The notes under the pieces were generated by a model that worked only from the letters and a program-made list of their open reading frames with translations, ran no database searches and had not been told where the DNA came from. Made by a program: the position numbers and the translations under genes. Below are positions 2,413 through 29,920 of a DNA stretch of 46,301 nucleotides, one piece after another. The DNA lies in the IMG/VR virus record IMGVR_UViG_3300045988_085846, positions 1-46,301 of that record; one strand, written 5' to 3'. Each line of letters begins with the position of its first letter. The first letter of the stretch is position 1. Source of the stretch: a virus.

Positions 2413-2508
2413 GTTTGATACAAGCGGATAGCTCGACGGGGCGAAAAGTGGACTGCCTTACCATCTTCCGCTTGTTCAAAAAACAAGGCAATTACGAAAG
2501 GCAGTAAT

Positions 2509-3693: not shown

Positions 3694-3847
3694 AACCATC
3701 AACGGACAAACCTGGTTCTGTTGCCCCGAATGTGGGAAGAAGATTCACCCGGTAAAGCCGGGAGCCTGTGGCGTCCTGGTGAAATGCACCGGCAAAAACA
3801 ACGGTAAACGTTGCGATTGGTACGGTGAAATCAAATGGGCCGGATAA
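3686..3847 (+). CDS. small zinc-ribbon protein (53 aa)
   Basis: ATG overlaps the upstream stop (ATGATTAA); CCPECG...C..C..C motif (MIKTINGQTWFCCPECGKKIHP...CTGKNNGKRCDW). Confidence 0.55.
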   Translation: MIKTINGQTWFCCPECGKKIHPVKPGACGVLVKCTGKNNGKRCDWYGEIKWAG

Positions 3848-3865
3848 CCAAACGAAACCAAAATT

Positions 3866-3921
3866 AAGCAAGCGTAAGCAAATAAAAAGCAAACGTAAGC
3901 AAAAAGAAGCAAAGTAAAGCA
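3866..3921. repeat. six helically phased AAGCA repeats in an A-rich tract
   Basis: AAGCA starts at 3866, 3876, 3887, 3897, 3907, 3917 (spacing 10, 11, 10, 10, 10) in the intergenic region before the scaffold gene. Confidence 0.8.
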
Positions 3922-4075
3922 AATAAAACCCAAATAACCTGAGCCTTTGAGCCAAGAATCAACTAAAACGTTGGTTTTTGGCTTATTTTTTTATCTTTGA
4001 CCGCCCCGACGTCGTAAAACTACGGGCGACAGCGGATGCAACCCGCGTAAATAAGCGTAGTCGTGGGAGAGAACA

Positions 4076-4699
4076 ATGAAACGCGAATATCTGAAAGAAC
4101 TCGGCTTAGAGGATGAGATCATCGACAAGGTTCTTGCTGAGAATGGCAAGGATATCGAGCGGGAGAAGGGTAAGGCTGAAGCTGCCAAGGCGGACGCCGA
4201 GAACCTGAAGACCCAGCTTGCCGACCGAGACAAGGATCTGGAAGAGCTGAAAAAGAACGTTGGTTCTGCCGATGAGATCAAGGCTCAGATGGATGAACTG
4301 AAAGCCAAGTATGACAAAGACACAGAAGCCTACAAGGCACAGATCGCGGAACGGGACTATTCCGCTGCTGCTTCTGCTGCTATCACCGGCGCAAACGTCA
4401 AGTTTTCGTCCAAGGGAGCTGAGAGGGCGTTCAGGGACGAACTGAAAGCCAAGGGCCTGACCCTGAAAGACGGCGCACTGGAAGGTTTCGACGATTTCCT
4501 GAAAGAACAGCGTGAAGCCGACCCAGGCGCTTTTGCACCTGACAAACCAACCCCTTCTTTTGGCCGACCTGTCGGCACGGGTGGTAAGGATAACGGCACC
4601 GAAAATATCGGTATCGCCCTTGCAAAGAGCATCGGTGCGGCTACCGCGCAGAACAGCAAAACGTACAGCGACGTACTGTCGCAATATAAGGGAGAGTGA
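4076..4699 (+). CDS. capsid scaffolding protein (GP20-like)
   Basis: 207 aa, coiled-coil and charged N-terminus (MKREYLKELGLEDEIIDKVLAENGKDIEREKGKAEAAKADAENLKTQL...), directly upstream of decoration and capsid genes. Confidence 0.7.
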   Translation: MKREYLKELGLEDEIIDKVLAENGKDIEREKGKAEAAKADAENLKTQLADRDKDLEELKKNVGSADEIKAQMDELKAKYDKDTEAYKAQIAERDYSAAASAAITGANVKFSSKGAERAFRDELKAKGLTLKDGALEGFDDFLKEQREADPGAFAPDKPTPSFGRPVGTGGKDNGTENIGIALAKSIGAATAQNSKTYSDVLSQYKGE

Positions 4700-4704
4700 A
4701 AAAT

Positions 4705-5061
4705 ATGGCACTGGGTACCATGAAATACTCTGAGGTTTCTGCACCTTCGGATGTGGAAATCCTGTACAACTCCGAGTATGTTGGCAAGGCCCTTACTCTG
4801 GATTCTACCGCATTTACCAGCGGCGTTTGCAAGGCTGGCACTCCTATGGCGGCGGATGGCAAGAAAGCCGCGACTTCCGGCGAATCCAGTAGTCAGACTT
4901 CTACCGCCGTCGGCGTCCTGCTGTGGGATGTTTACGAGGATCGCCCCCAGGGCACTATCGTTATCGGCGGCTACATCAACACCGCCAAGGCGCAGGCACA
5001 TTCCGGTGTTACCGTGGATGCTGTCGCCAAGGCCGCTATGAAGAACGTCGTATTCATGTAA
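4705..5061 (+). CDS. head decoration protein (lambda gpD-like)
   Basis: 118 aa, SD gggagag 9 nt upstream of the ATG; small Gly/Ala/Thr-rich protein immediately upstream of an E-type major capsid gene (D-E pair). Confidence 0.55.
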   Translation: MALGTMKYSEVSAPSDVEILYNSEYVGKALTLDSTAFTSGVCKAGTPMAADGKKAATSGESSSQTSTAVGVLLWDVYEDRPQGTIVIGGYINTAKAQAHSGVTVDAVAKAAMKNVVFM

Positions 5062-5077
5062 GGAAGGAGGATAAAAG

Positions 5078-6148
5078 ATGAACATTTCTGATGTTTTCAG
5101 CGCTGCCGCTATTGCCGTGCAGCAGACCGAAGCTGCGTATAACCGCATGGCTTACCTGGGTGAGGGTTTCTTCCCTGCTAAGAAGAAGATGGGCCTGGAT
5201 TTGAAGTGGATCAAGTCCCACAAGGGCCTGCCCGTTTCTCTGGCCCCCTCCAACTTCGACGCCAAGTCTACCCTGCGTAGCCGCGAGGGTATCAAGGTCG
5301 ATGAGACCCAGATGGCCTTTTTCCGTGAGTCCATGCTGGTGAAGGAAGAGGATGAGCAGGAGATCATGCGTATCATCGACGGCAATGACCCCTACCTGGC
5401 CTCTGTCCTGTCCTCCATCTATGACGATGCTTCCACCCTGGTTGAGGGTGCCCGCGTCGTGGCTGAGCGTATGCGTATGCAGCTGCTGGCCCCTGTTACC
5501 GATGGTTCCCCTAGAATCGTCCTGGAAGCTGGTGGTGTGCAGTATTCCTACAACTACGACACCGACGGCAGTTACAAGACCAACAACTACAACGCTATCA
5601 CCACCACTACCAAGAAGTGGAGCGCTACCGACACCGCCGACCCCATGAGCGACATTCAGGACGCCCTGGATTCCGTCGAATCCAACACCGGCACCCGGCC
5701 CACCATCATGCTGTGCAGCAAGAAGACCATGGGCTACCTGAAAGCCAATGCTAAGATCAAGTCCGCCGTTCTGGCCCAGAACATCACCGCCAACGTGTTT
5801 ATGACCGATGCGCGAGTGAATGAGCTGTTCCAGAACGAGCTTGGTGTGACCATCATCGTGTACTCCAAGCAGTACAAGGATGAGGCTGGAACTGCTCATA
5901 AGTTCTACCCTGATGACATGGTTACTCTGCTACCGGAGGGCGCACTGGGTTCTACCTGGTATGGCACCACCCCCGAAGAGCGCACTCTGATGGGCAAGGC
6001 CGATGCTGATGTGTCCTTGGTTGATACCGGCATTGCCGTTGCGGTGACCACCACCTCTGACCCCGTGAACACCAAGACCACGGTTTCCGAAATCGTCCTG
6101 CCCTCCTTCGAGCGCATGGACGAGACTTACGTTATCAAGGTAGCCTGA
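5078..6148 (+). CDS. major capsid protein (lambda gpE-like family)
   Basis: 356 aa; N-terminal ...AYLGEGFFPAKKKMGLDLKWIKSHKGLPVSLAPSNFDAKSTLRSREG... typical of Phage_cap_E proteins; SD aggaagg upstream. Confidence 0.8.
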   Translation: MNISDVFSAAAIAVQQTEAAYNRMAYLGEGFFPAKKKMGLDLKWIKSHKGLPVSLAPSNFDAKSTLRSREGIKVDETQMAFFRESMLVKEEDEQEIMRIIDGNDPYLASVLSSIYDDASTLVEGARVVAERMRMQLLAPVTDGSPRIVLEAGGVQYSYNYDTDGSYKTNNYNAITTTTKKWSATDTADPMSDIQDALDSVESNTGTRPTIMLCSKKTMGYLKANAKIKSAVLAQNITANVFMTDARVNELFQNELGVTIIVYSKQYKDEAGTAHKFYPDDMVTLLPEGALGSTWYGTTPEERTLMGKADADVSLVDTGIAVAVTTTSDPVNTKTTVSEIVLPSFERMDETYVIKVA

Positions 6149-19332: not shown

Positions 19333-19521
19333 ATGAAACAACTGCTGAAACTGCTTGATGTGAAGAGCCTGGTTACTCTGGCTATGACTGCGGCCATGAT
19401 CGCCTTGCTTTTCTATCCCGTGGAGGTAAACCCGGATGCAAAAAGCCTCTTTTGCACGGCCTACGGGGCTATCATCACGTATTTCTTCACGAAGAAAACG
19501 GAGGGGAAGGGCAATGAATAA
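19333..19521 (+). CDS. holin
   Basis: 62 aa, two hydrophobic segments (LVTLAMTAAMIALLFYP; LFCTAYGAIITYFF) and a charged C-terminus; overlaps the endolysin start. Confidence 0.7.
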   Translation: MKQLLKLLDVKSLVTLAMTAAMIALLFYPVEVNPDAKSLFCTAYGAIITYFFTKKTEGKGNE

Positions 19522-20305
19522 GCCTGCAAGCTATTTACAAACAGACCCCCGCTGGGCCAACGTGGACTATTCCGCCAAGGGGGAGAAAACCACCATCGGC
19601 AAATCCGGCTGCGGCCCCACTGCTATGGCGATGGTGCTGGCCACCTGGGCGGACAAATCCGTCACGCCGAAGACTGAGTGCACCTGGGCGCTGGCCCACG
19701 GCTACAAGGCCCCGCACCAGGGGACTTATTACGGCTACTTCGCCCCAGCCGCCAAGCGCTTCGGCCTGACCTGCAAGATGCTCAACGGGGCCAGCATCTA
19801 CGGAAAACCCAACAGCCCGTACCACGCCCAGGCCAAGGCCGCCGTGGACCAGGGTGATCTTGTGATCGCCTGCATGGGCCGTGGGCTTTGGACGTCTTCT
19901 GGGCACTTCGTCCTGGTGTGGAAAATCACCGGGAATACCATCTATATCAACGATCCTGCCAGCACCCGGACGGCGCGGACGCAGGGGGACTATTCGCTGT
20001 TCAAGCAGCAGGTGAAATACTATTTCGTGGTAAAAAAACCGGCCACCATTCAGCGGCCAGAGAAGGAGGATGACGATATGGACATCAAAAAGATCATCGA
20101 ACAGCTCACTCCAGAAATGTGCTACAGCATCATGGTTGAGGCTATGGCCTATGCAGGCAATCTGCCGGAACCGGAGTGGTCGAAAAAAGAGGGTGCTTTC
20201 CAGGGCCTGAAGCATCGTGGTATCATGGACGGAACGGGGCCGGAGCGCCCTGTCAAGCGGGATGAGCTGGCCGCTGTGCTGGGCCGTCTGGGGGTGCTGG
20301 ACTGA
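19514..20305 (+). CDS. endolysin, cysteine-peptidase type (C39/CHAP-like) with a C-terminal wall-binding-like domain
   Basis: 263 aa; LQTDPRWANVDY...GKSGCGPTAMAMVLA...SGHFVLVW catalytic Cys/His pattern; C-terminal ~70 aa resembles an SLH-like repeat (GIMDGTGPERPVKRDELAAVLGRL). Confidence 0.6.
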   Translation: MNKPASYLQTDPRWANVDYSAKGEKTTIGKSGCGPTAMAMVLATWADKSVTPKTECTWALAHGYKAPHQGTYYGYFAPAAKRFGLTCKMLNGASIYGKPNSPYHAQAKAAVDQGDLVIACMGRGLWTSSGHFVLVWKITGNTIYINDPASTRTARTQGDYSLFKQQVKYYFVVKKPATIQRPEKEDDDMDIKKIIEQLTPEMCYSIMVEAMAYAGNLPEPEWSKKEGAFQGLKHRGIMDGTGPERPVKRDELAAVLGRLGVLD

Positions 20306-20546: not shown

Positions 20547-21041
20547 TTATTTTAGTTTATCCTGATTGTCGATGTGCTTTTGAATCAATCCCCGTACATA
20601 CTCACTGACTGAGATGCCCTGCGCTTTCGCGGTGTTTCTAACATCACGCAACATCTCCGGTGGAACCGTGATAGTGAGCGTCTGCATGTGTTTGTTGGAC
20701 GGTTTTCGCCCCCTTCCTTTCTTCTCTGGGTGTTTTATTTCATAATTTTCCCTGGATCTTTGTTTATTCAGCATCTCCGAACATTCGTCGGAACACGTTT
20801 TTGCCCGGCGGCTGCGATTTTCTGCTATCTCATTCCCGCAAACAACACAAATTCTTGGCGGGTCTTGGATTTCGCCTCTTTTGATTAGCTTCATTTTTCG
20901 GGCGGATTCCATTACCTGCACGGAACGGCGCTCCCTGGAACAGTGCGGGCAGAAACGCGCCTTGGATTCCCTTGGGATACTCTCCCCGCACATCTCGCAT
21001 TTTTTGAGTGCTTTCACTCCGGACTTCTTCTTTTCCTCCAT
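20547..21041 (-). CDS. double zinc-ribbon + C-terminal ribbon-helix-helix protein
   Basis: 164 aa; CEMCGESIP...CPHC and CVVCGNEI...CSDEC units; C-terminus TLTITVPPEMLRDVRNTAKAQGISVSEYVRGLIQKHI (CopG/Arc-like); SD aggagg. Confidence 0.6.
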   Translation of the reverse strand: MEEKKKSGVKALKKCEMCGESIPRESKARFCPHCSRERRSVQVMESARKMKLIKRGEIQDPPRICVVCGNEIAENRSRRAKTCSDECSEMLNKQRSRENYEIKHPEKKGRGRKPSNKHMQTLTITVPPEMLRDVRNTAKAQGISVSEYVRGLIQKHIDNQDKLK

Positions 21042-21071
21042 GGTTCCTCCTGATGAAGTGATGGGGCGGCG

Positions 21072-21677
21072 TTATTCCAGCCCCTTGCTCTTCTCAATTT
21101 CACGCTGGATCAACTCTCTCATAAATTTGCTGAGACTCTCTTTGTTTGCATTCGCGGAATCCAGAATCCAGTCCCGCATTGAGGCTGGGGCGGAAAAAAA
21201 TATGGAAACAGTCGGGTCGTCCGCAATGGGAGATGCTTTTCTTTTTTGTACCGGAACATGCCTGTGCTGCTCGTAATACGAGCGTTGATATTGTTGCCGA
21301 TGGATTCTCCCACATGCATCCGAGCAAACGATTGCTCTGGGGTTTTTGCCTGCCGGAATTGGCTGCCCGCAAATCACGCAAATCCTCGGCTTCGGCCTTG
21401 TGCTTTGATACCTTTCTTTGTGATACTGCTCTTTTCCGATTTTTTTGCATTCATCGGAGCAGTAATCATTCCTCTGATTCCATTCGCGCGGGATCGGCTT
21501 CCCGCAGACTTTGCACAGCTTTTGAGGCTGTGTGATCTCATAGTTCTTTTTGGCGGCTATGGCATCTTCTACGTTTCCATATACACCGAGATACTTCTTT
21601 CCGCAGTACACCATCCATTTTCCGGTGCCTTTGTTCCATGTGACACCACGGACGCCTGATTTCGGTGTCTCAGCCAT
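21072..21677 (-). CDS. AP2-like + double zinc-ribbon + RHH protein (paralog of 20547-21041)
   Basis: 201 aa from the internal ATG; SGVRGVTWNKGTGKWMVYCGKKYLGVYGNVEDAIAAKKNYE (AP2-type); CKVCGKPIP...CSDEC, CVICGQPIP...CSDAC; C-terminal RHH-like SIFFSAPASMRDWILDSANANKESLSKFMRELIQREI. Confidence 0.55.
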   Translation of the reverse strand: MAETPKSGVRGVTWNKGTGKWMVYCGKKYLGVYGNVEDAIAAKKNYEITQPQKLCKVCGKPIPREWNQRNDYCSDECKKIGKEQYHKERYQSTRPKPRICVICGQPIPAGKNPRAIVCSDACGRIHRQQYQRSYYEQHRHVPVQKRKASPIADDPTVSIFFSAPASMRDWILDSANANKESLSKFMRELIQREIEKSKGLE

Positions 21678-22002
21678 GGCAAAAATCCTGCCGCACCAAG
21701 CGCACCAGCATGAGGCGTACATATTCCGGGGCGTTGCTGGCTCCACTTTCCCAGTTTTGGACGGTCCGGGGTGGGATACCGTACCAGGCGGCAAATCTGG
21801 ACTGTGTCAGGCCGGTCATGGCCCGGAGTTCTGCAACGCTCTTTCGGACGTCTTCCCAGAGCTTGGCCAGGTATTGCACCCGGTCTACCGGGATTGGGGC
21901 GGTGGGTTCGTCTCCCCAGATGTTGGAAAGCGCCCAGTCGGAGACGAAAGCATCTCTGTCGGTGGTAGAGATGGCGTCCTGGATCAACATTTGTTCGTTC
22001 AT
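21670..22002 (-). CDS. XRE-family HTH protein
   Basis: 110 aa from the ATG overlapping the upstream stop (TAATG); LRAMTGLTQSRFAAWYGIPPRTVQNWESGASNAPEYVRLML. Confidence 0.6.
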   Translation of the reverse strand: MNEQMLIQDAISTTDRDAFVSDWALSNIWGDEPTAPIPVDRVQYLAKLWEDVRKSVAELRAMTGLTQSRFAAWYGIPPRTVQNWESGASNAPEYVRLMLVRLVRQDFCHG

Positions 22003-23009
22003 TACTTTTCTTCCTTTCTCATTTTCACGGGATAGATAACAACGGTATCCTGTGTTTTGTTTTTTAGGTTGATAAACGTGGGAGCGACCCATTTCAGGAT
22101 CAGTTTCCGATCTCCGTCCCGTGGCCCAGTCCAGAAATGGTGCCAATGCCCGCGGCGGGAGTGTGGGGATTTTTTGGAGCCTGTGCCGGGTTCCGTCTCC
22201 GCGCTAGGGGATGGCTTGGCTTTGATTTTTCGGATCGCCGCACCGATGCGGAGACCGACGTTCTTCACCTTCACGCTGCTTTTCTTTTTCTTCCCCTTCT
22301 GGGATTTCTGGGTGTTGTCCAGTTCGGGGGCTGGGCCGCTGGTGATCTCTGCGTTTTCGGATAGCAGGTATAGTATCCACTGAATCGCTTGCAGGTGCAT
22401 GATCCAATTCTCTTTTTCTTCATGCCTGCCCTTCGTTTCCATGGTATCCATAGTATCTACTATACATTCCCAGATTGTTTTTTCAGGCTGCAATTTCAGA
22501 AAACAATCAAATATAGCGGTGTCCCCCTGTTTCACGCCCACGAAATGTATCACGGTGTTTTTGGTTTCTGTGTTGTAGTCCACAAATGCAAATAAACCGT
22601 CGATAATATATTTATCCGTAGGCCCTGCCGTTTTCATGTAAATGCAGGGGTACGGGAGATTTAACAGCATTTCAACCGGCAAGAGATCGGATTCGTCCAT
22701 TTCCTCCGCCTGTTGCATCAGCAGTCTGGCCAGGTCTGGATCGAACTGATACATGACCTTTGTTTTCGACCACGCCCAGCACGCCGTTGTTACGCTGACA
22801 AATCCATTTCTGGAGAATGCGTCGAAACTATCCCATTCGTTGGAAATGAGTCTTACTTCGTCCACCGCTATATTTAGCGGGAGTGGACAGTAGTCTGGCC
22901 AATTAGATTCCCCAGAAATTTTCCGGGCTGCGAGATCATCCAATCGGTCATAAACATTCCCAATCGACCACTGCCGGACAAACGGCATTGGCGTGTCTTT
23001 TTCTTTCAT
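22002..23009 (-). CDS. hypothetical 335-aa protein with a basic C-terminal RRGHWHHFW motif
   Basis: SD aggagg 5 nt upstream; lysine-rich linker (KSQKGKKKKSSVKVK) then SPHSRRGHWHHFWTGPRDGDRKLILKWVAPTFIN; no family recognised. Confidence 0.6.
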   Translation of the reverse strand: MKEKDTPMPFVRQWSIGNVYDRLDDLAARKISGESNWPDYCPLPLNIAVDEVRLISNEWDSFDAFSRNGFVSVTTACWAWSKTKVMYQFDPDLARLLMQQAEEMDESDLLPVEMLLNLPYPCIYMKTAGPTDKYIIDGLFAFVDYNTETKNTVIHFVGVKQGDTAIFDCFLKLQPEKTIWECIVDTMDTMETKGRHEEKENWIMHLQAIQWILYLLSENAEITSGPAPELDNTQKSQKGKKKKSSVKVKNVGLRIGAAIRKIKAKPSPSAETEPGTGSKKSPHSRRGHWHHFWTGPRDGDRKLILKWVAPTFINLKNKTQDTVVIYPVKMRKEEK

Positions 23010-23082
23010 AAATTCCTCCTATCTTGCGGGGTTGTGACCGCAGGGCTTACGCCCTCCCGCATTACCGGCCCAGTGTGGGCCG

Positions 23083-23469
23083 TCACTCTGCGTTGTATAC
23101 CCCGTATTCTGCGATTTCTTCCGGGTCTGCCTCGTGGACCTGCTCCATCAAGTCCTCAATTTCCAGCCCCCAACCGGCGGCCAGGAATTCCAGTTCTTTT
23201 TTATCGACGCAGATAGGAGACTGACTTCCGAAAAAGGCATCCTCCCGGTCAACGTTGGGGAAATAGTATTCTCTGTCGAGCATGGCCGCGTTGATGTAGC
23301 TGTCGGAGAACTCACTATCCAGCAGGTCCTGGAAGCCGGGATCGAGTTCCAGGTAACGGTCCAGGAATTCTTTTGCGGTGCAGGGGGCGAGTTCTGCGTG
23401 AACCTGCTCTCGAATGTCGTCGTTCATGTAAACGGTGATGGCGTCCCAATATCTGTTCTTCATTTTCAT
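23083..23469 (-). CDS. acidic hypothetical protein
   Basis: 128 aa (or 126 from the second ATG, which has better SD spacing); 31 D/E versus 10 K/R. Confidence 0.55.
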   Translation of the reverse strand: MKMKNRYWDAITVYMNDDIREQVHAELAPCTAKEFLDRYLELDPGFQDLLDSEFSDSYINAAMLDREYYFPNVDREDAFFGSQSPICVDKKELEFLAAGWGLEIEDLMEQVHEADPEEIAEYGVYNAE

Positions 23470-23499
23470 TTCCTCCTAGTTTGTGTTCCGTGGGGTTCG

Positions 23500-23829
23500 T
23501 TACTGGATGATCTCAATGACAACGGGGTCTTCGATGACCAGTTCACCCAGGTCTTCGCCGTAGGTGGCGGAGTTGCCACCGATCACGGCGATGTGATCAC
23601 CGTCGTAAAAATTGGAGCCGCTCAGGACGCCCAGCTTGCGAACGTCAATGACGCTGACGCCGTCCATCTCTTCGTCAGTCTCTTCCCCGTCCACCCAGAC
23701 GGAGGAAGCGTGGTCGAGTTCGCCGAGCTCGAATTCCTGCTCTTGGAAACGGATGCCGATGTACTCATAATCCATTTCGTACTCTTCAGCGATAGCCATG
23801 ATCTTTTCTTTCATCTCGTTGGTCAACAT
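23500..23829 (-). CDS. very acidic hypothetical protein
   Basis: 109 aa; 28 D/E versus 5 K/R; SD aaggaaggggga upstream; first gene after the consensus promoter. Confidence 0.6.
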   Translation of the reverse strand: MLTNEMKEKIMAIAEEYEMDYEYIGIRFQEQEFELGELDHASSVWVDGEETDEEMDGVSVIDVRKLGVLSGSNFYDGDHIAVIGGNSATYGEDLGELVIEDPVVIEIIQ

Positions 23830-24027: not shown

Positions 24028-24059
24028 CCCGTCCCATTTTGGGGGCGGGCTTTTTTATT
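24028..24059 (+). terminator. second intrinsic terminator in the same intergenic region
   Basis: cccgtccc/gggggcgg 8-bp stem followed by cttttttatt. Confidence 0.6.
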
Positions 24060-24065
24060 GGGCAG

Positions 24066-24098
24066 AAATTGGGCATAAATTGAGCGGGAATTGGGCAT
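24066..24098. repeat. three tandem 11-bp repeats upstream of the rightward orphan operon
   Basis: aaattgggcat / aaattgagcgg / gaattgggcat, directly upstream of ttggac...tggtaaaat (extended -10 at 24126-24134). Confidence 0.6.
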
Positions 24099-24159
24099 GG
24101 TTTGGACAAGCGATGGAGCGGCAGATGGTAAAATTTATCTAGAACGAGGGGTGATAAAA

Positions 24160-24615
24160 ATGGCTGCTTACACTGTGCCGAACTACGGAGGAAACTTTCA
24201 GATGCCCAACCAAATGCAGAACGTGCAGGGCTATCAACAGAATCAGGTATACCAGCAGGGGCAGAACTACCAGCCCTCTATAATCCAGCAGAGCAACAGC
24301 GGCTATATCTGCCGCCCAGTAACGGGCCGGGAGGAAGCGGTTGCCATGCAGGTTGATTTTCTGGGGCCTGGTACGTTGATGCCTGATTTTCCCCACGGAA
24401 TCATATATTTTAAGCGGTTCAACCCGAACACTGGGGCGGCGGATTTTGCTGAATTCCGTTTAGCGCCGCCACAGCCGGAACCAAAACCGGCGCAGGGCGT
24501 AACGATGGACGATTTCAACGCCCTAGCAGATAGGGTTAGAAAACTAGAGAAAATGGAAGGTGGGATAAAAAATGGTGCAGATGAACCCTATGATGTTTCT
24601 GATGCAGGCCGCTAG
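24160..24615 (+). CDS. Q/N-rich hypothetical protein
   Basis: 151 aa, SD gagggg; 20 of the first 48 residues are Q or N; globular C-terminal half (PVTGREEAVAMQVDFLGPGTLMPDFPHGIIYFKRFNP...). Confidence 0.6.
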   Translation: MAAYTVPNYGGNFQMPNQMQNVQGYQQNQVYQQGQNYQPSIIQQSNSGYICRPVTGREEAVAMQVDFLGPGTLMPDFPHGIIYFKRFNPNTGAADFAEFRLAPPQPEPKPAQGVTMDDFNALADRVRKLEKMEGGIKNGADEPYDVSDAGR

Positions 24616-24808
24616 AAGCGGGAACCCAATGGGTATGCTTCGGCAGTTGGCAGGCCAGAATCCACAGATTTCTCAGGCCATGCGGATGATGCAGGGCAAA
24701 TCAACCCAGCAGTTGCAGCAGATGGCCCAGAATATGGCGAATGAACGGGGCGTAAGCCTGAACGATGTGGCCCGGCAGTTAGGAATCACGATTCCCAGCA
24801 ACCGGTAA
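24572..24808 (+). CDS. M/Q-rich small hypothetical protein
   Basis: 78 aa, SD ggaaggtggg; overlaps the upstream gene by 44 nt (later in-frame ATGs possible); C-terminal HTH-like GVSLNDVARQLGITIP. Confidence 0.45.
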   Translation: MVQMNPMMFLMQAARSGNPMGMLRQLAGQNPQISQAMRMMQGKSTQQLQQMAQNMANERGVSLNDVARQLGITIPSNR

Positions 24809-24879
24809 CATAAATTAACCATTTCAGTTGGCGAATCTTGACAAAAATCGTCAAATCCAACTGAAAGGTGGTTTGTCGA

Positions 24880-25716
24880 ATGGCAGACGAAATGATGACT
24901 GGTTATCTGGCCGGACAGGCTGATAACAACAACTGCAACGGCGGCGGTATGTGGGGCGGTGATGGTTCCTGGATTTTCGCATTCCTGATTATCGCCCTGA
25001 TCTTCGGCGGCAACGGCTTCGGCTGGGGCAACAACGGCACGAATGGCGGCGCTTTACAGGGGGCTATCACCCGCGCAGACCTGTGCGAATCCTTTAACTT
25101 CAACGGCCTTGATAACGCCGTTCGTGGTGTGCAGAGCGGCCTCTGCGATGGATTCTATGCTATGAATACCGGGATGCTGAACGGTTTCAATGGCATGCAG
25201 CAGGTGGTTTCCAACGGCTTCCACGGTGTTGATAATGCTATCTGCGCCATGGGTTACCAGAATGCCCAGCTTATCAACGGCGTAACCCAGAACATGAACA
25301 CCGGCTTTACCGGCGTGACGGCTGGCCTCACGGCTCTGGGCAATCAGATGCAGTCCTGCTGCTGTGATACTCAGCGGCAGGTGGAGCGTGGCTTCTGCGA
25401 TACCAATTACAACGCTGCAACCAACGCCCGTGATATCATCCAGTCCACCCACAACGACACCGACCGGATCATTGCGCGGATTGACCAGATGGAAACCGCA
25501 CGGCAGGCTGAGAAGATCGCGGCGCTCCAGGCTGAAAACCAGGGGTTGAAATTTGCCGCTTCTCAGGCCGCGCAGAACACCTACCTTGTAGCGTCCCAGG
25601 CGGACCAGACGGCGAAAATCATCAACGCTATCAACCCGCCCCCTATCCCGGCCTACCAGGTGCCCAACCCCTACACTGGGAACGGCTGCGGTTGCAATAG
25701 CGGCTGCGGTTGCTGA
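24880..25716 (+). CDS. membrane protein with Gly/Asn-rich 11-residue repeats and 12 Cys (C-terminal GCGCNSGCGC)
   Basis: 278 aa from ATG 24880 (SD aaaggtgg); TM segment SWIFAFLIIALIFGG; hendecad pattern xxG(L/M/F)xxG(F/V)xG(V/M); coiled-coil-like IARIDQMETARQAEKIAALQAENQ. Confidence 0.6.
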   Translation: MADEMMTGYLAGQADNNNCNGGGMWGGDGSWIFAFLIIALIFGGNGFGWGNNGTNGGALQGAITRADLCESFNFNGLDNAVRGVQSGLCDGFYAMNTGMLNGFNGMQQVVSNGFHGVDNAICAMGYQNAQLINGVTQNMNTGFTGVTAGLTALGNQMQSCCCDTQRQVERGFCDTNYNAATNARDIIQSTHNDTDRIIARIDQMETARQAEKIAALQAENQGLKFAASQAAQNTYLVASQADQTAKIINAINPPPIPAYQVPNPYTGNGCGCNSGCGC

Positions 25717-25749
25717 TCCAACACATTCCGGCTATGCCGTGATACTAAA

Positions 25750-25780
25750 GGCGGCAGGCTAAAACCTGCCGCCTATTTTT
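25750..25780 (+). terminator. rho-independent terminator splitting the orphan operon
   Basis: ggcggcagg-ctaaaa-cctgccgcc followed by tattttt. Confidence 0.8.
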
Positions 25781-25792
25781 GAGAGGTGACAC

Positions 25793-25972
25793 ATGGAAAA
25801 AGAAATTTTCGACAGAGCGGTTGACATGCTACGGGATGGAAAACAGCGGGAGGCTGTTATCCTGCTGCGAGACAACGGATTTTCTTGTACCTCTGAGGAC
25901 GGCGGCTTATCCGTTTCGCTTATGCTGTTGATGATCGCGTTTTCTGATTGTTTCGGCAAAGAAGGAGAATAA
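25793..25972 (+). CDS. small hypothetical protein (59 aa)
   Basis: SD gagagg 7 nt upstream; MEKEIFDRAVDMLRDGKQREAVILLRDNGF...; below the ORF-track cutoff; translated by hand with no internal stop. Confidence 0.45.
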   Translation: MEKEIFDRAVDMLRDGKQREAVILLRDNGFSCTSEDGGLSVSLMLLMIAFSDCFGKEGE

Positions 25973-25974
25973 AA

Positions 25975-26211
25975 ATGTTTGATTTCAACGATTTCCAAGA
26001 TTTCCAGAACATAATTTGGCGTAGCAGAATGACCAATGCAGCAAGTAAGTCAGGTGATGGCTTCGGTTTGGGGCGCTCTTCTACACCGGATTACCAGCAG
26101 GACAACAGCAGCGATTTTTTCATGTTCGCGGTAATTATGATAATTTTCGGTGGCGCGTGGATGCGTGAAATTTCCGAAAAATTAGATGAACTGAAAGGGG
26201 ATAAAAAATAA
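25975..26211 (+). CDS. small membrane protein (78 aa)
   Basis: ATG 2 nt after the upstream stop, SD gaaggag; hydrophobic FFMFAVIMIIFGGAWM. Confidence 0.5.
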   Translation: MFDFNDFQDFQNIIWRSRMTNAASKSGDGFGLGRSSTPDYQQDNSSDFFMFAVIMIIFGGAWMREISEKLDELKGDKK

Positions 26212-26621
26212 TGGCCTGTAAGACGATTTGCCGCCTGTGCGACAAGTTGGTGATTTCCCAGGCGGTGAACTATTCCGCTGCGTCCGGGCTTATCATCAAT
26301 ATTCCGGCAGGTAGCTACACCAACGGGCAAAAAGTTTGCCTGGTGATCGCCCAGAACATTCCTGCGGCGGCTACCATCAATGCGCCGGTATCTATCACTA
26401 TCGGCACCGGTACCCAGTTGTACCCGCTGAATCGTGCAGACTGCACCCAGGCAACGGCCTGCAACCTGCGAACCAGAACGCGGTACAGCACCAGAATTTC
26501 GACAACGGCCACAGGTGGCGCTTTCAAACTGCTGGGCCGTCCCTGCTGTGCGCCTAGCAACGCCTTGGCTTCCATCGACGGAACGGCCCCGACAACTAAC
26601 GAAGGAGGCGGCGCAGGATGA
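26211..26621 (+). CDS. Cys-rich hypothetical protein (136 aa, 8 Cys)
   Basis: MACKTICRLCDK... N-terminus, ...GRPCCAPS near the C-terminus; beta-rich-looking A/T/I/N composition; start overlaps the upstream stop (TAATG). Confidence 0.55.
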   Translation: MACKTICRLCDKLVISQAVNYSAASGLIINIPAGSYTNGQKVCLVIAQNIPAAATINAPVSITIGTGTQLYPLNRADCTQATACNLRTRTRYSTRISTTATGGAFKLLGRPCCAPSNALASIDGTAPTTNEGGGAG

Positions 26622-27343
26622 GTAAATTTAGCAGAATGATGCTCCTAAACTCTGGTAGCAAAAAGGCTTCCGATGATCGCGAGGAAAACGAACGCCGGGA
26701 GCGGCAGGAACGCCGTCACGACTACAACGTAGATGATCGTTTCCGTGATACCAATGGCCGCGAACACTACGACAATGGCCGCTACGCGCCCCAGGACACT
26801 ATGCCCTATTACTATCCCCCTTATGGAGGCTACGACGCTAGGGAAGGGCGTGAACCTGGCTATACATGGACTAGAAATGGCGGATACGCGGAACCCACCA
26901 AAACAACCCGCCCCATTGGGTTTGAGCGCGGTGATGCTCCCTACATGGGCGGCGCAGATGCTACCGTTCCCCGGTACAACGAAATGGAGCGTATGCCCGG
27001 AAACCGTTCCATGACCGGCGGCGCAGAATCCAACGTTTCGCCGCGTTTCGACATGCAGATGGCCCAAGAGTGGACGCGCCGGATGCAGAATGAGGATGGC
27101 ACCACCGGCCCACACTGGACGATTGACCAAACCAACAAGGTGATGGAACAGCGCGGGGTAAATGAGGACCCTGTTAAGTTCTGGGCGGCGATGAATATGA
27201 TCTATTCCGATTTCGTCAATGTAGCCAAAAAGCTTGGCATTTCTAACGTAGATTTCTACACTGAAATGACCCGCGCTTTCCTGGATGATAAGGACATTTC
27301 AGGGGACAAATTGGCAAAATATTATGAATATGTGGTGAAATAA
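26618..27343 (+). CDS. hypothetical protein: R/E/D-rich then Y/G/P-rich N-half, globular C-terminal domain
   Basis: 241 aa; DDREENERRERQERRHDYNVDDRFRD..., YYYPPYGGYDAREG...; C-terminus GPHWTIDQTNKVM...FWAAMNMIYSDFVNVAKKLG... Confidence 0.6.
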   Translation: MSKFSRMMLLNSGSKKASDDREENERRERQERRHDYNVDDRFRDTNGREHYDNGRYAPQDTMPYYYPPYGGYDAREGREPGYTWTRNGGYAEPTKTTRPIGFERGDAPYMGGADATVPRYNEMERMPGNRSMTGGAESNVSPRFDMQMAQEWTRRMQNEDGTTGPHWTIDQTNKVMEQRGVNEDPVKFWAAMNMIYSDFVNVAKKLGISNVDFYTEMTRAFLDDKDISGDKLAKYYEYVVK

Positions 27344-27400: not shown

Positions 27401-27418
27401 TTGACTAAAATTTGACTA
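27401..27418. repeat. arm-type repeat ttgactaaaatttgacta (copy 1)
   Basis: Exact 18-bp direct repeat of 27591-27608; the copies flank the attP core 190 bp apart. Confidence 0.8.
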
Positions 27419-27478
27419 AAACCTGGGCGTATTTCGGGGCATCTCAGGGGCCTTCAAAGTACCACCAAAAACAGCAAA

Positions 27479-27528
27479 AAACCGTTGAGAATCAAAGGAA
27501 ATCCTTGAAACTCAACGGTTTTCTGTTT
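27479..27528 (+). terminator. terminator of the rightward orphan operon
   Basis: aaaccgttgag...ctcaacggttt stem with an inner hairpin, followed by tttctgttt. Confidence 0.6.
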
Positions 27529-27590: not shown

Positions 27591-27608
27591 TTGACTAAAA
27601 TTTGACTA
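27591..27608. repeat. arm-type repeat ttgactaaaatttgacta (copy 2, overlaps the integrase stop)
   Basis: Exact copy of 27401-27418. Confidence 0.8.
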
Positions 27609-28655
27609 TCTTTCCTTCTCTGGGGTTTCAAACTCATAATTTGCCCCTAGTAGTTTTTTGTTCACCTTCTTGGAATGTACCTCTCGGATGTGTGTATAAA
27701 TATCCTTGGTAGTGGATTCTTGGGCGTGTCCCAATAATTTTTGAGCGTCTTTCGTTCTGATGTCTTCTTCGTACAACAGGGTAGCGTATGCGTGGCGGAT
27801 AGGATGCGGAGTGCAGGTTACGCCGGATTCGCGCTTATATTTTGCCCAGCACCCTTCAAAAACCCCTTCTGTCATCAGCTTTCCGTATTTGTCCGGGAAA
27901 ATCAATCCCTTGCTCTTCTGGGTGATGATTTTATCTTCCAGGGCTTTCAACAGGGGTAAGGGGCGGATGCCGTTCTCGGTTTTTGGGGCCTTTATCTTTT
28001 TTACACCCAGGGCAGATACACGGGATTTTGTAACGTGAATCAATTTTTCTTTGAAATCCACGTCCTCCCAGCGCAGGGCGAGTAGTTCACCACGCCGCAA
28101 TCCTGTGTACAGCGTCCAATATGCGAACATCCCGAATGTGCATTCTGTCGAATGGATCACTCGCTTTATATCATCGTCGCTGGCTATCTGCCGTTTCTTT
28201 TTTGGTAGGCCTGCCGGTATCTCTATCTCCCGACAAGCGTTGATCCTTGTGTATCCGTGCGCCACGGCATACTTGCAAATCATATTGATAACAGAACGCT
28301 GTGTGCTAGCTGTTTTCCGCGCTGGATGCTGTTCGGCAACATAGCGCATTAAAAATGCGTTGATGTCCACGGGTTCAATTTCGGTTATCTGCCTATCACC
28401 TAGAGCCTCGATAGCTCGGCGGATGGGGGCATAGTACGATTTCTTTGTGTTGATTTCCAGCCCTTCAACGTAGTTCTCCTGCCATTCTTCGGCGATAGCG
28501 CCAAATGTCCGGGCTTGTTCCTGTTCCTGTTCGTACTGGTTAATCTTTTCCAGCACTTCCCGTTTTGTCCTGCCATAGAAAAATTTGGTTTTCTTTTGGC
28601 CGTTTACAACAATAGGCAGAGTTTCCTGCCACCTTCCGTCTGCGCGTTTGTACAT
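27606..28655 (-). CDS. int: tyrosine integrase
   Basis: 349 aa; ...TGLRRGELLALRWEDVDF...HPIRHAYATLLYEE...LLGHAQESTTKDIYTH (R...HxxR...Y catalytic pattern). Confidence 0.9.
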   Translation of the reverse strand: MYKRADGRWQETLPIVVNGQKKTKFFYGRTKREVLEKINQYEQEQEQARTFGAIAEEWQENYVEGLEINTKKSYYAPIRRAIEALGDRQITEIEPVDINAFLMRYVAEQHPARKTASTQRSVINMICKYAVAHGYTRINACREIEIPAGLPKKKRQIASDDDIKRVIHSTECTFGMFAYWTLYTGLRRGELLALRWEDVDFKEKLIHVTKSRVSALGVKKIKAPKTENGIRPLPLLKALEDKIITQKSKGLIFPDKYGKLMTEGVFEGCWAKYKRESGVTCTPHPIRHAYATLLYEEDIRTKDAQKLLGHAQESTTKDIYTHIREVHSKKVNKKLLGANYEFETPEKER

Positions 28656-28934: not shown

Positions 28935-29477
28935 TTAGCTTAATTGTGCAGGATCAAATTCCTGTGTTGCTTTGTCAGCGCCGCCAAGGAAAACGCTCAA
29001 TTCAAATTCTACCTTAGATGTTGTGTTGGGTAATTCGTAGGCAAGCTGAAAATCTTGGGTGGTTCCAGGACGAATGTCCTTCCATTGTGCATCCCCGTCA
29101 TAAACACCATCCCGATCTTCGACGGCAGCGTTTTCTAACTGTACGCCGTCCTGGAACGCCTGCCCCATCAAAGCTGCCAGCGCGGACGTGGTTTCTTCGC
29201 TGTTATTCGTCCAGGTGCAATCAACGATGATAGCATCGTTTCCTTCTATATCTTTCGTAACAGAAGCACCCTTGACAGCGAAATCATAGCTATCAGTGGA
29301 AATGCTGGCGGTATCTTTGGACGTTTCTTCGTCCTTGGCAGTGTCGGCGGTCTGGGTGGTATCCCCTGCGCTGTTTCCGCTGGTATCAGTTGTCGTACCA
29401 GCATCACCACCACCACAAGCGCACAGCGTCAGAGCCAGTGCAGAACCGAACAGAATAGCGGCTATACGCTTTTTCAT
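28935..29477 (-). CDS. lipoprotein (DUF4352/immunoglobulin-like fold type)
   Basis: Signal peptide plus lipobox MKKRIAAILFGSALALTLCAC; Thr/Asp-rich linker; beta-rich domain. Confidence 0.65.
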   Translation of the reverse strand: MKKRIAAILFGSALALTLCACGGGDAGTTTDTSGNSAGDTTQTADTAKDEETSKDTASISTDSYDFAVKGASVTKDIEGNDAIIVDCTWTNNSEETTSALAALMGQAFQDGVQLENAAVEDRDGVYDGDAQWKDIRPGTTQDFQLAYELPNTTSKVEFELSVFLGGADKATQEFDPAQLS

Positions 29478-29920
29478 TGGGCACCGTCCACTTTCTCCAG
29501 GGTGGCGGTGATGGTGCTACCGTCCACAGTCACGTCATAAGTGATCTTGCCGTCCTGGTAGGTGAATGTCTTGGTTTCGTCTGGGGATGCCATGAGCGCG
29601 GTGCTAGTCTGTTCTGTGTCGTTCTGAGAATCCCAGGTATAGGGTTCGTCTGCCGTGGTGGGTGCGGTGTAGGTACCAGCCCAGTACAGCATAGAATCAC
29701 CATCTACCACCCAATCGACCGTGATAGAATCATCGGTGATTGTGGCTTTCTGGCTCACCTCATCGGACAGCTTGGCTTCCCATTCGCCCACCAAACTAGG
29801 CGGGGTTGCCTGCTCGGAATCCGCTGCCGGTGCATCCGTCGTGCTGCCGCTGCTTCCACAGGCGCACAAGGACAGCATCAACAGGGTACCAGTCAGGCCT
29901 GCTAACACTCTCTTCTTCAT
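29474..29920 (-). CDS. lipoprotein
   Basis: MKKRVLAGLTGTLLMLSLCACGSSG lipobox; overlaps the downstream lipoprotein gene by 4 nt. Confidence 0.65.
   Translation of the reverse strand: MKKRVLAGLTGTLLMLSLCACGSSGSTTDAPAADSEQATPPSLVGEWEAKLSDEVSQKATITDDSITVDWVVDGDSMLYWAGTYTAPTTADEPYTWDSQNDTEQTSTALMASPDETKTFTYQDGKITYDVTVDGSTITATLEKVDGAQ

Follow-up and report, generated by a model that had tools for sequence, protein, structure and literature searches.

A widespread five-protein phage cassette built around a predicted membrane-anchored helical rod

A rightward gene block (positions 24,160 to 27,343) in the window, the 46,301-nucleotide viral DNA stretch IMGVR_UViG_3300045988_085846, appears from sequence comparison to represent a phage module of five proteins, with two inserts. 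The module is widespread and, by the same comparisons, is found in thousands of gut phages. Its hallmark is g3, a putative single-pass membrane protein encoded by the third of seven genes, which we call g1 to g7. Our preferred reading of the module, tentative and well short of probable, is a complex that would be expressed late, sit on the cytoplasmic side of the host membrane and be linked to egress. A literature search found no paper describing the cassette.

The seven co-directional open reading frames (ORFs) reported in the initial annotation are all present on the + strand: g1 (24160..24615, 151 aa), g2 (24572..24808, 78 aa, overlapping the end of g1 by 44 nt), g3 (24880..25716, 278 aa), g4 (25793..25972, 59 aa), g5 (25975..26211, 78 aa), g6 (26211..26621, 136 aa) and g7 (26618..27343, 241 aa). 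An alternative GTG start at 24868 would give a g3 of 282 aa. Recounting reproduced the annotated compositions exactly: Q or N accounts for 20 of residues 1–48 of g1, g2 contains 12 M and 13 Q, g3 contains 12 Cys, 39 Gly and 32 Asn, g6 has 8 Cys, and R, G, Y, D and E are enriched in the N-terminal half of g7. Hydrophobic segments are present in g3, g4 and g5. The seven ORFs are genuine genes, not chance: g1 to g5 are gene calls in public assemblies (5/5 sequences looked up), and g1, g2, g3, g6 and g7 each have tens to thousands of homologues. It is extremely improbable that the ORFs are chance ORFs or decaying cargo without a functional unit. The dispensability of g4 and the near lack of relatives of g4 and g5 would fit such a reading, but homologues numbering in the thousands, a conserved gene order, invariant residues, indels that keep the frame and gene calls in databases oppose it, and for g1, g2, g3, g6 and g7 it is contradicted. 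In agreement with the initial annotation, searches of the products against Pfam, NCBIfam and PADLOC turned up no NTPase or other enzyme domain. The description of the block as an orphan operon, none of whose products matches a known family, had to be abandoned: g7 carries the Pfam domain DUF7841, g3 matches phrog_16490 and has more than 6,000 homologues, g6 has 1,509, and relatives of g1 and alternative partner proteins also fall into PHROG families.

The conserved unit comprises five genes rather than the seven originally proposed. In order, these are g1, a small protein, g3, a ~130-aa beta protein and a ~150–330-aa protein that is either DUF7841 or low-complexity, and both gene order and sizes are conserved in ~50 loci and several deposited phages. 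Recurrence of the block in other phages therefore held for g1, the g2 slot, g3, the g6 slot and the g7 slot, but not for g4 and g5, neither of which has a homologue among 52 related loci. Two partner sets have g3 in common: a PV.S-type g1 is accompanied by g2, g6 and g7, and a WVQGE-type g1 by phrog_22984, a BclA_C-like protein and phrog_28802. This co-variation as sets suggests that the proteins are physical partners.

Judged from these comparisons, g4 and g5 are lineage-specific inserts outside the conserved unit. The 90% cluster of g4 has 2 members; the gene is cleanly deleted in the near-identical phage L058, and its differences in L059 and L060 look mostly synonymous by eye, the pattern of a dispensable, lineage-specific small ORF. 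The g5 product (90% cluster of 6 members) has one hydrophobic segment (FFMFAVIMIIFGGAW), by eye similar to the transmembrane helix of g3, and the gene is kept in L058–L060, with its frame preserved through a 9-nt indel. In other loci, the g4/g5 junction is occupied by small ORFs unrelated to these.

The match of g3 to phrog_16490 is strong (E 2e-49), and its family, counted above at 90% clustering, forms 2,557 clusters at 50% identity and has no Pfam domain. An acidic N-tail of 30 residues is followed by one Gly/Trp-flanked transmembrane helix (~31–44), a Gly-rich linker, an all-helical rod of ~175 residues (~66–251) with 11-residue repeats, and a Pro-rich and Cys-rich C-terminal tail; CCC160-162, T164, R166 and E169 are invariant alignment columns. 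The 11-residue repeat noted initially is real, with a hydrophobic period of 3.65–3.67 residues and a power of 100–128 compared with a shuffle 99th percentile of 51, and the same periodicity analysis gave no signal at the heptad-type period of 3.5. The 11/3 periodicity and the AF2 model, which shows helices at low confidence (pLDDT 55.7), point to a long hendecad helical rod, and this could be either an extended coiled coil or a hairpin. Read by eye from the alignment, rod length seems to vary in 11-residue steps.

Charge statistics provide the basis for the predicted topology. Across the family, N-tails of 20–40 aa carry 3.4 D/E versus 0.4 K/R, with no K/R in 66%, the C-flank of the membrane helix is slightly more basic than the N-tail, and a median of 11 Cys follows the helix. 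Firmicutes are known to exclude Cys from exported proteins. From the acidic N-tails, the high Cys content and the partner proteins, in whose sequences no export signal was seen by eye, we infer that the rod lies in the cytoplasm. The g3-like proteins of Bacteroides and archaeal viruses have N-tails of 45–75 residues with some Lys and would fit the opposite orientation.

Comparison with known systems places g3 near several families without assigning it to one. With the spanins (lambda Rz/Rz1, P2 LysB/LysC) it shares the i-spanin outline of an N-terminal membrane helix, long coiled coil, conserved Cys and Pro-rich C-terminus, as well as a location beside lysis genes, with a LysB/FtsL-like gene two genes upstream in the crAss-like phage cr52_1. 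Unlike spanins, however, the cassette comprises five co-evolving proteins rather than two, has no lipoprotein partner (no lipobox was seen by eye in its proteins) and shows no detected sequence similarity to them, and the g3 rod is predicted to be cytoplasmic, not periplasmic. Moreover, most cassette hosts are Clostridia, which lack an outer membrane. The T4 holin T with its antiholins RI and RIII, a precedent for a multi-protein module controlling a membrane step at lysis, similarly combines a single-pass membrane protein bearing a large soluble domain with small soluble partners among late or lysis genes; it differs in that there is no homology, the soluble part of g3 is a predicted hendecad rod instead of a globular domain, and related loci already have a conventional holin. 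Influenza HEF2/HA2 class I fusion subunits resemble g3 in having a Gly-rich hydrophobic segment ahead of a long helical coiled-coil region, and HEF2 is the best PDB profile match, its fusion peptide aligned to the g3 hydrophobic segment. This match is non-significant (E 0.12), no signal peptide or cleavage site was seen in g3, the g3 repeat is hendecad, not heptad, and the carriers are tailed phages without an envelope. Finally, long helical repeats are found on a membrane part in ZorA of Zorya defence systems and in tape measures, which are able to enter membranes. The g3 matches to ZorA (PADLOC, E 0.002) and to the window's own tape-measure repeats (E 0.065) are close to noise and confined to the coiled-coil region; a MotA-like channel domain is missing from g3, and ZorB, ZorC and ZorD partners are absent. 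Beyond these weak ZorA matches, PADLOC matched no family.

The fourth slot of the cassette holds a knob-like protein. As modelled, g6 (pI 9.2) is an eight-strand beta-sandwich (residues 12–107; AF2 pLDDT 79.5) flanked by Cys-rich tails, with C3, C7 and C10 in the N-tail and C112 and C113 in the C-tail. A structure search found no significant PDB fold match, and in BFVD the model matched the ends of tail-fibre/collagen-like phage proteins (E 1e-4 to 1e-2, TM 0.44–0.5); in this respect g6 resembles tail-fibre tip domains. Sister cassettes carry stand-alone proteins in this slot that resemble the BclA C-terminal domain (BclA_C, PF18573), a TNF/C1q-like knob of the exosporium nap, with E values of 5e-7 and 8e-8. 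In contrast, g6 itself has no BclA_C match in Pfam and lacks a collagen stalk, and comparing its profile with those BclA_C-like proteins showed no similarity (hhalign probability 0.2%); it is a separate small protein with Cys-rich tails. The endospore appendage subunits Ena (DUF3992) and F-ENA (DUF4183) are also small beta-sandwiches, with N-terminal connector peptides, which in Ena carry a double-Cys motif (PMC12357932). However, g6 has no Pfam match to either family and no Ena/F-ENA structure among its 50 best PDB fold matches, and the cassette is carried by phages, including those of hosts that do not form spores. The predicted g3 rod, the fibre-tip-like g6 model and the BclA_C-like alternative knob lend some support to the early impression of fibre-, coat- or self-assembly-like proteins.

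The same features raise the question of a virion accessory, in which g3 would serve as a fibre shaft, or as an ejection protein that inserts its hydrophobic segment into the target membrane, g6 as a tip or capsid decoration, and g1, g2 and g7 as assembly factors, with Cys cross-links forming after release. Besides the two knob types, this quite unlikely reading would accommodate the 11-residue repeat with its apparent length steps, the fusion-peptide alignment in the non-significant HEF2 match, the lack of a signal peptide by eye, as expected for cytoplasm-assembled proteins, and cassettes that lie inside or end structural gene blocks. Other annotators have labelled g3 homologues 'viral fiber', 'spike' or 'spike protein/glycoprotein'. 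However, the same portable module would need to attach to virions of the sipho-, podo- and other types, terminators often divide the cassette from the structural operon, its proteins show no paralogy to the window's structural proteins, and proteomic data turned up for none of the carrier phages. Fast evolution is usual for receptor-binding tips, but identities across the 120 best of the 1,509 g6 homologues are 66% or higher.

A conversion role, in which these proteins rich in Cys, Tyr and Gly would be added to the spores or envelope of the host in the manner of an exosporium nap or endospore appendages, is in our view very unlikely. In composition they are reminiscent of proteins of the coat and exosporium, the alternative knob has its BclA_C match, most hosts belong to Oscillospiraceae and other Clostridia, groups that include spore-formers, and at one locus the cassette abuts CotJA/CotJB genes. 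Yet the family also occurs in phages of non-sporulating Bacteroides and methanogens, which argues against any sporulation-specific role, and in a lytic phage; the window proteins have no Ena, F-ENA or BclA match in Pfam and no PDB fold match, and nothing in coat assembly corresponds to the g3 membrane anchor.

Of the remaining partners, g1 is universal, adjoining g3 in 48/52 loci. Its Q/N/Y/P-rich low-complexity N-terminus precedes a conserved domain of ~55 residues (alignment pattern V..S..EA......G......D.....IY.K....G), a Pro-rich linker and a C-terminal helix. No match was found in Pfam or a PDB sequence search, and 31/45 of its relatives match phrog_21718, a PHROG of unknown function. The second slot is filled by g2, a Met/Gln-rich protein with NP motifs and a pI of 12, in 35/52 loci, and in other cassettes by a similar-sized protein of a different family, phrog_22984. 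The C-terminal domain of g7 is DUF7841 (PF25223, residues 130–237, E 6.9e-31, above the curated cut-off), the only domain in the best 120 of its 213 homologues; the R/D/E/Y/G-rich N-half carries the motifs RFRDRRGREHYDNGRYAP and IGF, conserved in the alignment. In crAss-like phages, a DUF7841 gene adjoins a g3-like gene.

In the membrane complex that we favour, the one Gly/Trp-flanked helix of g3 would anchor it in the cytoplasmic membrane of the host, with the short acidic N-tail facing outward and a hendecad rod of 12–26 nm in the cytoplasm. The rod may oligomerise, and the invariant CCC...C motif and Cys-rich tail could bind metal or cross-link. The signal-less partners would assemble on the rod, the g6 knob docking via its Cys-rich tails and the low-complexity segments of g1, g2 and g7 letting these proteins serve as adaptors or scaffolds. 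Against this, g3 C-terminal tails do not co-vary with knob type, leaving a direct contact between g3 tail and knob unsupported. The complex, presumably neither a virion part nor a lysogen-only function, would target the membrane during egress and either take part in the timing of lysis or disrupt or remodel the membrane.

Genomic context bears on this proposal from both sides. The cassette usually sits at the end of a late or lysis operon, just before the integrase: at least 12 loci have endolysin domains ≤3.5 kb upstream, 14/21 loci have an integrase or recombinase immediately downstream, and lysis genes are also adjacent in bajarodcaudo virus 5, Ceridwen and crAss-like cr116_1 and cr52_1. 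In Dulem virus 35 it lies inside the head-gene block. Because the lysin–integrase slot is the default location of accessory genes of every kind, adjacency argues only weakly for an egress role. The annotated placement between the lysis cassette and attP/int is accurate in that one rightward unit lies between endolysin and integrase, but 3.3 kb of minus-strand genes intervene after the endolysin, and these genes, together with a terminator between cassette and lysis genes, count against the egress role. An endolysin is encoded in the window itself, related loci already possess a standard holin and endolysin, and no homology-based or experimental link connects the cassette to any lysis function.

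Carriers also include the lytic Butyrivibrio phage Ceridwen, crAss-like Bacteroides phages and viruses assigned to gut methanogens, and the g3 family extends to the plaque-forming Bacteroides phage C3_41T2LP. Only lytic growth was observed for Ceridwen, which has no excisionase. Occurrence in such lytic-growing or integrase-less phages makes pure lysogenic conversion unlikely. The initial interpretation as moron or conversion cargo is further weakened in the window lineage, where close relatives keep the cassette constant while a neighbouring hypervariable island turns over. Superinfection exclusion, or envelope-level protection, by a membrane complex that blocks competitor DNA entry or adsorption, made in the prophage or early in lytic phages, is also unlikely. 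It would agree with the classic prophage position next to the integrase, with terminators bracketing the cassette in many loci like an autonomous unit, with a membrane protein in the absence of enzymes, and with the anti-defence island, including an AcrIC5-like gene, beside the window's cassette. Ltp and other known exclusion proteins act on the tape measure, and the g3 repeats faintly resemble those in the tape measure of this phage. To our knowledge, however, known exclusion systems are single small proteins specific to few phages, whereas this co-evolving five-protein set is conserved from Clostridia to Bacteroides to archaea-assigned viruses. The unusual conservation of g6, the embedding of the cassette among late or structural genes in Dulem virus 35 and crAss-like phages, the lack of a PADLOC match beyond ZorA and the scarcity of sigma-70-like promoters (12/43 loci) also speak against exclusion.

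Late expression of the proposed egress complex is suggested by these few promoters and by recurrent terminator-like hairpins before g1 and after g3; it might proceed by terminator read-through or from an activator-dependent promoter. Upstream of the window's cassette, the scan found a terminator-like hairpin (24028..24049, + strand; -17.2 kcal/mol, z -2.4) that would insulate it from leftward-origin transcription, and 24/43 related loci have a comparable hairpin ≤260 nt upstream of g1. The initial annotation had proposed a promoter region with 11-mer repeats here. Repeats exist, as two direct copies of the 10-mer AATTGGGCAT 22 bp apart (24067-24076 and 24089-24098, + strand); their count is not above chance, and it is their tandem placement just upstream of g1 that makes them candidate activator or operator sites. 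A consensus scan that depends on a -35 hexamer returned no sigma-70-like promoter for the + strand ahead of g1, leaving as promoter candidate a possible extended -10 noted by eye (TGgTAAAAT, 24126..24134, + strand), ~26 nt before the g1 start codon. Both terminators annotated earlier (25750-80 and 27479-528) were confirmed by folding. The final one, between g7 and the convergent integrase gene (27478..27527, + strand; -24.5 kcal/mol, z -5.5), was missed by the hairpin scan owing to its long loop. The other, an intrinsic-terminator-like hairpin directly after g3 (25749..25774, + strand; -21.6 kcal/mol, z -5.9), is a candidate attenuator setting the ratio of g1–g3 to the downstream genes, and could in this way set the stoichiometry of the cassette products. 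A comparable hairpin follows g3 in 18/42 loci and also in L006, and in L058–L060 its stem is invariant while the loop varies.

The seven co-directional ORFs at 24160-27343 of the window (g1-g7) are arranged exactly as the initial annotation had described them, and every one of its compositional statements was borne out. Its term 'orphan', in turn, did not survive database searching, as we retrieved 6,144 homologues of g3 at E<=1e-3 (among 90% clusters), 1,509 of g6 and 213 of g7. Grouping at 50% identity resolves the g3 family into 2,557 clusters, of which 1,323 lie at E<=1e-10, and the 150 best homologues are mostly 200-340 aa long. g3 matches the HMM of PHROG 16490 (E 2e-49), a family of unknown function with which the g3 homologue of the methanogen virus vir215 is also annotated; neither the window protein nor 50 diverse relatives contained a Pfam domain. 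The g6 family is unusually tight, its best 120 members being at least 66% identical. Residues 130-237 of g7 match Pfam DUF7841 (PF25223) with 107.3 bits against a gathering cut-off of 25.2 (E 6.9e-31), the only domain carried by the 120 listed g7 homologues according to precomputed assignments. For g1 of the window, no PHROG matched at E<=1; an iterated profile linked it to relatives matching PHROG 21718, likewise of unknown function (31 of 45 aligned relatives, best E 9.7e-48), and a Pfam scan of these 45 added nothing.

To delimit the conserved unit, we compared 52 related loci, 45 of them from bacterial genomes, mostly of Oscillospiraceae and other Clostridia, and the rest from phage records and metagenome contigs. 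In searches with iterated profiles, 48 loci had g1 next to g3, 35 had g2, 26 had g6 and 22 had g7, and a homologue of g4 or g5 never appeared; the unit conserved across loci thus comprises five genes rather than the seven originally counted. Its order and sizes are constant: g1, a protein of 65-100 aa, g3, a protein of 115-170 aa and a protein of 150-335 aa. Where g2, g6 and g7 are absent, other families occupy the second, fourth and fifth slots, namely phrog_22984, phrog_20016 (~143 aa) and phrog_28802, the last with helical ends and a G/Y/S/R-rich middle. We rejected these substitutes as distant homologues of g2, g6 and g7 (hhalign probability <=2.4%); by eye, an R/G/Y motif of the GREHY..GRY kind is all that g7 and the alternative fifth protein have in common. 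The partners co-vary as sets, with g2, g6 and g7 accompanying the PV.S subtype of g1 and the alternative trio accompanying the WVQGE subtype. A few recombinants between the two sets exist and g3 is common to both, a pattern that would be expected of proteins touching each other. Beside families of this size and a unit this constant, the notion that the ORFs are non-functional keeps a practically negligible probability. A contact between the g3 tail and the fourth-slot protein was considered and dropped, as tail variants are spread over both fourth-slot types. No cassette protein has a paralogue among the other genes of the window.

The junction 3' of g3 is where g4 and g5 have been inserted: in a phage with an identical g3 protein, g4 is cleanly absent and g5 is retained with an in-frame indel. 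This junction, which g4 and g5 occupy at 25717-26210 in the window, is an insertion hot spot inside the cassette. Elsewhere it contains unrelated small ORFs, of 73 aa in locus L027 and of 85 and 96 aa in loci L037 and L011, and the ORFs of the latter two loci resemble each other by eye.

The cassette is a co-evolving five-protein set, free of enzymes, around a protein that crosses the membrane once and carries a hendecad rod. g3 (278 aa, one membrane helix) starts with a short acidic N-tail, followed by the hydrophobic helix with Gly/Trp-rich flanks and a Gly-rich linker. Its AF2 model shows three long helices (77-112, 117-162 and 171-251) at low confidence, with a pLDDT of 55.7 overall and near 90 only for residues 190-250; a fold search was omitted because the model was too poor. 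Hydrophobic residues in the helical part recur with a strong 11/3 (hendecad) period and without a heptad signal, and gaps in the family alignment fall, by eye, in blocks of about 11 residues. At the break between helices two and three, CCC160-162 is invariant and T164, R166 and E169 are nearly so, while the Pro-rich tail ends in a Cys cluster. Among 236 family members, the N-tail holds 3.4 D/E versus 0.4 K/R (66% of members have no K/R), the C-flank of the membrane helix is slightly basic, the median number of Cys residues after that helix is 11 and the CCC motif is present in 96%. The g3 homologues of loci L054-L057 (Bacteroides and archaeal viruses) carry an extra N-terminal region of 45-75 residues with the conserved motif L(M/L)QNKG(V/I/M)DP.L(M/L)AM. 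This region resembles the Met/Gln-rich g2 by eye, and a g2-like N-terminus would, if real, favour a cytoplasmic location of the g3 N-terminus; with profile scores of 2-6 bits, however, we do not consider it credible that g2 is a detached copy of the N-terminus of the Bacteroides-type g3.

Three partners contain low-complexity regions and one resembles a fibre tip. g1 combines a Q/N/Y/P-rich N-terminus with a small conserved domain and a C-terminal helix; g2 is very basic and Met/Gln-rich; and g7 joins an R/D/E/Y/G-rich half with conserved short motifs to DUF7841, stretches of similar composition being found in the fifth-slot proteins of other cassette types and in the crAss-like versions. The model of g6, the knob, is confident and shows an eight-strand beta-sandwich from whose two ends disordered Cys-rich tails extend. 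A fold search of g6 against the PDB gave nothing significant, and an OB-fold or DNA-binding identity was discarded (OB-fold matches at TM <0.3). Beyond its own family, the knob matched long phage proteins in BFVD with tail-fibre or collagen-repeat annotations (E 1e-4 to 1e-2, TM 0.44-0.5). The earlier characterization of the products as fibre-like and non-enzymatic holds up, whereas their proposed role as lysogenic-conversion cargo does not. By eye, no signal peptide or lipobox was seen in g1, g2, g4-g7 or the alternative partners, and Firmicutes avoid Cys in exported proteins. Together with the acidic N-tail and the Cys content, the lack of visible export signals suggests that the rod and all partners are cytoplasmic. 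In Dulem virus 35, the cassette is placed between the minor and major capsid genes. A virion-associated fibre or ejection set, in favour of which this placement and the fibre-like knob matches speak, is regarded as distinctly unlikely.

Knob-slot proteins of other cassettes (phrog_20016) match BclA_C (PF18573) with E-values of 5e-7 and 8e-8, which do not reach the gathering score; g6 itself had no Pfam match at E<=1 and reached an hhalign probability of 0.2% against the BclA_C-like set. With the Ena/F-ENA endospore appendages (DUF3992, DUF4183), g6 shares only the general layout of a beta-sandwich with Cys-rich tails, without a Pfam match and with no such structure among its 50 best PDB fold matches. 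A spore-surface or coat conversion function is contradicted by carriers in Bacteroides and methanogens and appears very improbable. In locus L006, CotJB and CotJA directly follow the cassette (5485-5923, minus strand), and genes for a GGDEF/EAL protein and a serpin come next; direct spore-coat neighbours were seen at no other locus, and the pair probably belongs to the host flank or to other cargo.

Searches of Pfam, NCBIfam, PHROGs and PADLOC with all seven proteins returned only DUF7841 and function-less PHROGs. In PADLOC-DB 2.0, cassette proteins other than g3 had no defence-system match, and g3 matched the coiled-coil part of ZorA weakly (E 0.0019 and 0.018). Sequence and profile searches of the PDB with g1, g3, g6 and g7 gave nothing significant; matches to HEF2 (E 0.12) and to a protein-G-like protein (E 0.45) were taken as noise, and the idea that g3 mimics a tape measure was rejected, the similarity (E 0.065) being purely compositional. 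The likeness of the g3 helical repeats to HEF2, ZorA and tape measure proteins is accordingly at noise level. No name is attached to the families of g1, g3, g6 or g7, and searching the literature for DUF7841, PF25223 and the PHROG numbers yielded no publication on the cassette. The function-less families DUF7841 and phrog_16490 are the only known groupings to which the set could be assigned. The block belongs to a very large phage module that is undescribed in the literature found.

The set closes late or lysis operons, and both temperate and lytic phages carry it, in hosts that differ widely. In prophages, it forms the end of the rightward late operon: endolysin domains (Amidase_2, Amidase_3, CHAP, GH25, C39_2) lie <=3.5 kb upstream in at least 12 loci, and of 21 loci, 14 have as their first large convergent downstream gene one for a tyrosine integrase (8 loci) or for a serine recombinase (6 loci). 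Terminator-like hairpins occur upstream of g1 in 24 of 43 loci and 3' of g3 in 18 of 42; in the close relatives of the window phage, the stem of the latter is invariant and its loop variable. Sigma-70-like promoters are rare (12 of 43 loci), and the cassette's own promoter, claimed in the initial annotation, could not be recovered, as no consensus promoter was found upstream of g1. The '11-mer repeats' reported there reduce to two copies of AATTGGGCAT, a number within chance expectation. A 64-aa Sigma70_r4-like helix-turn-helix protein is encoded just after the endolysin in the close relatives L058-L060; this candidate late regulator might act on the AATTGGGCAT repeats.

At 46.3 kb, the window is a complete temperate genome of siphovirus type, its sequences recurring on contigs of 46,301 bp; a CBM_5_12 protein and a Peptidase_C39_2-type endolysin (19436-20305) lie to the left of the cassette. 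Terminators stand between g3 and the endolysin here and in L006, and the internal and final hairpins of the window cassette, both noted previously, fold strongly. Between endolysin and cassette lies a 3.3-kb minus-strand block (20547-23829) encoding an AcrIC5-like protein (23083-23469) and RHH and treble-clef zinc-ribbon proteins (20547-21794), all on the minus strand, with a perfect TTGACA-17-TATAAT promoter plus TG motif at 23889-23861 (minus strand). Its gene content differs in each of three phages sharing the same g3 protein, and it looks like an anti-defence or accessory hotspot. The cassette remains unchanged in these three phages, which argues for a fixed phage part and not for swappable cargo. 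The moron assignment is in line with the flanking terminators and opposed by the missing consensus promoter, by constancy in three close relatives and by the presence of the cassette in lytically growing phages; the observation as such was confirmed, and its interpretation is partly supported. Superinfection exclusion or another envelope-protective function, which a membrane-anchored set near the integrase could serve, is considered unlikely. Better candidates for classic lysogen surface or exclusion proteins are two adjacent minus-strand ORFs beyond the integrase (28935-29477 and 29474-29920), lipoprotein-like by eye; the first, the one scanned, is DUF5067/DUF4352.

Outside the bacterial-genome loci, members of the g3 family gave full-length profile matches with E 1e-13 to 1e-34 (Z = 1e6). 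Butyrivibrio phage Ceridwen carries g1, phrog_22984, g3 and a BclA_C-like protein downstream of its endolysin; it is a cultured phage for which only lytic growth was seen and which has no excisionase, and its description does not discuss the cassette genes (PMC7372960). In Bacteroides phage C3_41T2LP, which forms plaques, analogous small genes come after a g3 homologue, and the family is further present in many crAss-like phages and in two viruses assigned to Methanomassiliicoccales. In the eight crAss-like genomes compared, including cr52_1, the g3-like gene is directly preceded by a DUF7841 gene, and the pair sits beside lysis genes within the structural block. Sources noted for the family were gut, faeces or rumen in every case; the cassette spans host phyla while staying within gut and rumen viromes, and it probably spans host domains. 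'Bacteriophage sp.' records of 4-6 kb were taken as fragments rather than autonomous small elements, the same genes being found in complete 40-60-kb phages. In cr52_1 (L055), the cassette is found two genes 3' of a DGR-type reverse transcriptase and the tail protein that it targets, an arrangement repeated in vir215 (L057). Several annotated genes around the cr52_1 cassette (2075-5964) have in-frame stops under table 11, consistent with stop-codon reassignment.

Since the cytoplasmic membrane is common to all these hosts and the lysis module is the most consistent neighbour, we tentatively favour a role at egress, either in its timing or in disrupting or remodelling the membrane, as a possibility that falls short of being probable. 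The complex would assemble on the inner membrane face late in infection, its Cys clusters might bind metal or cross-link, and the hairpin after g3 may tune the ratio of upstream to downstream proteins. A holin is a small membrane protein, usually <150 aa, that adjoins and is co-transcribed with the endolysin and is lethal on triggering; related loci encode a separate Pfam holin. In outline, g3 resembles an i-spanin, with a membrane helix and a coiled coil. The coiled coil of an i-spanin is periplasmic; the flank charges of g3 favour a cytoplasmic rod, so that the predicted topology is opposite. A two-component spanin moreover needs an outer-membrane lipoprotein partner, of which none was seen by eye in the cassette, and most cassette hosts are Clostridia. 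T4 T/RI/RIII, without homology to the cassette, is a precedent in which a lysis protein with one membrane pass is controlled by several others. No described lysis, exclusion, defence or virion system accommodates an enzyme-free, co-evolving five-protein set with a membrane anchor and a stalk-and-knob outline, and on the basis of failed matches and context we rate the module as far from every described kind.

A more far-reaching proposal, which we hold to be speculative and rather improbable, is that tailed viruses of gut Clostridia, Bacteroides and methanogens share a portable machine of five proteins, in which a membrane-anchored, Cys-stapled hendecad stalk, a fibre-tip-like knob and partners whose low-complexity regions are prion-like or of mixed charge would remodel, breach or mark the host cytoplasmic membrane late in infection. 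If true, this would add a new class of apparatus for egress or membrane fusion, independent of host envelope type and analogous in role to spanins or the exit pyramids of archaeal viruses, yet unrelated to either. The cassette is among the commoner multi-gene modules of gut-phage 'dark matter', and its role could reveal a missing step in the life cycle of phages of anaerobes, be it egress, membrane handling or persistence. Because at least two cultured phages carry the family (Ceridwen and C3_41T2LP), such roles are testable, and a single-unit annotation could replace the labels 'hypothetical', 'spike protein' and 'viral fiber' under which the five genes now go.

To the right of the cassette, the window encodes a tyrosine integrase on the minus strand (27606-28655). 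Two copies of TTGACTAAAATTTGACTA lie on either side of the g7/integrase terminator, at 27401-27418 and 27591-27608, the second overlapping the end of the integrase gene. The pair may represent arm-type sites of the integrase, which would place attP there.
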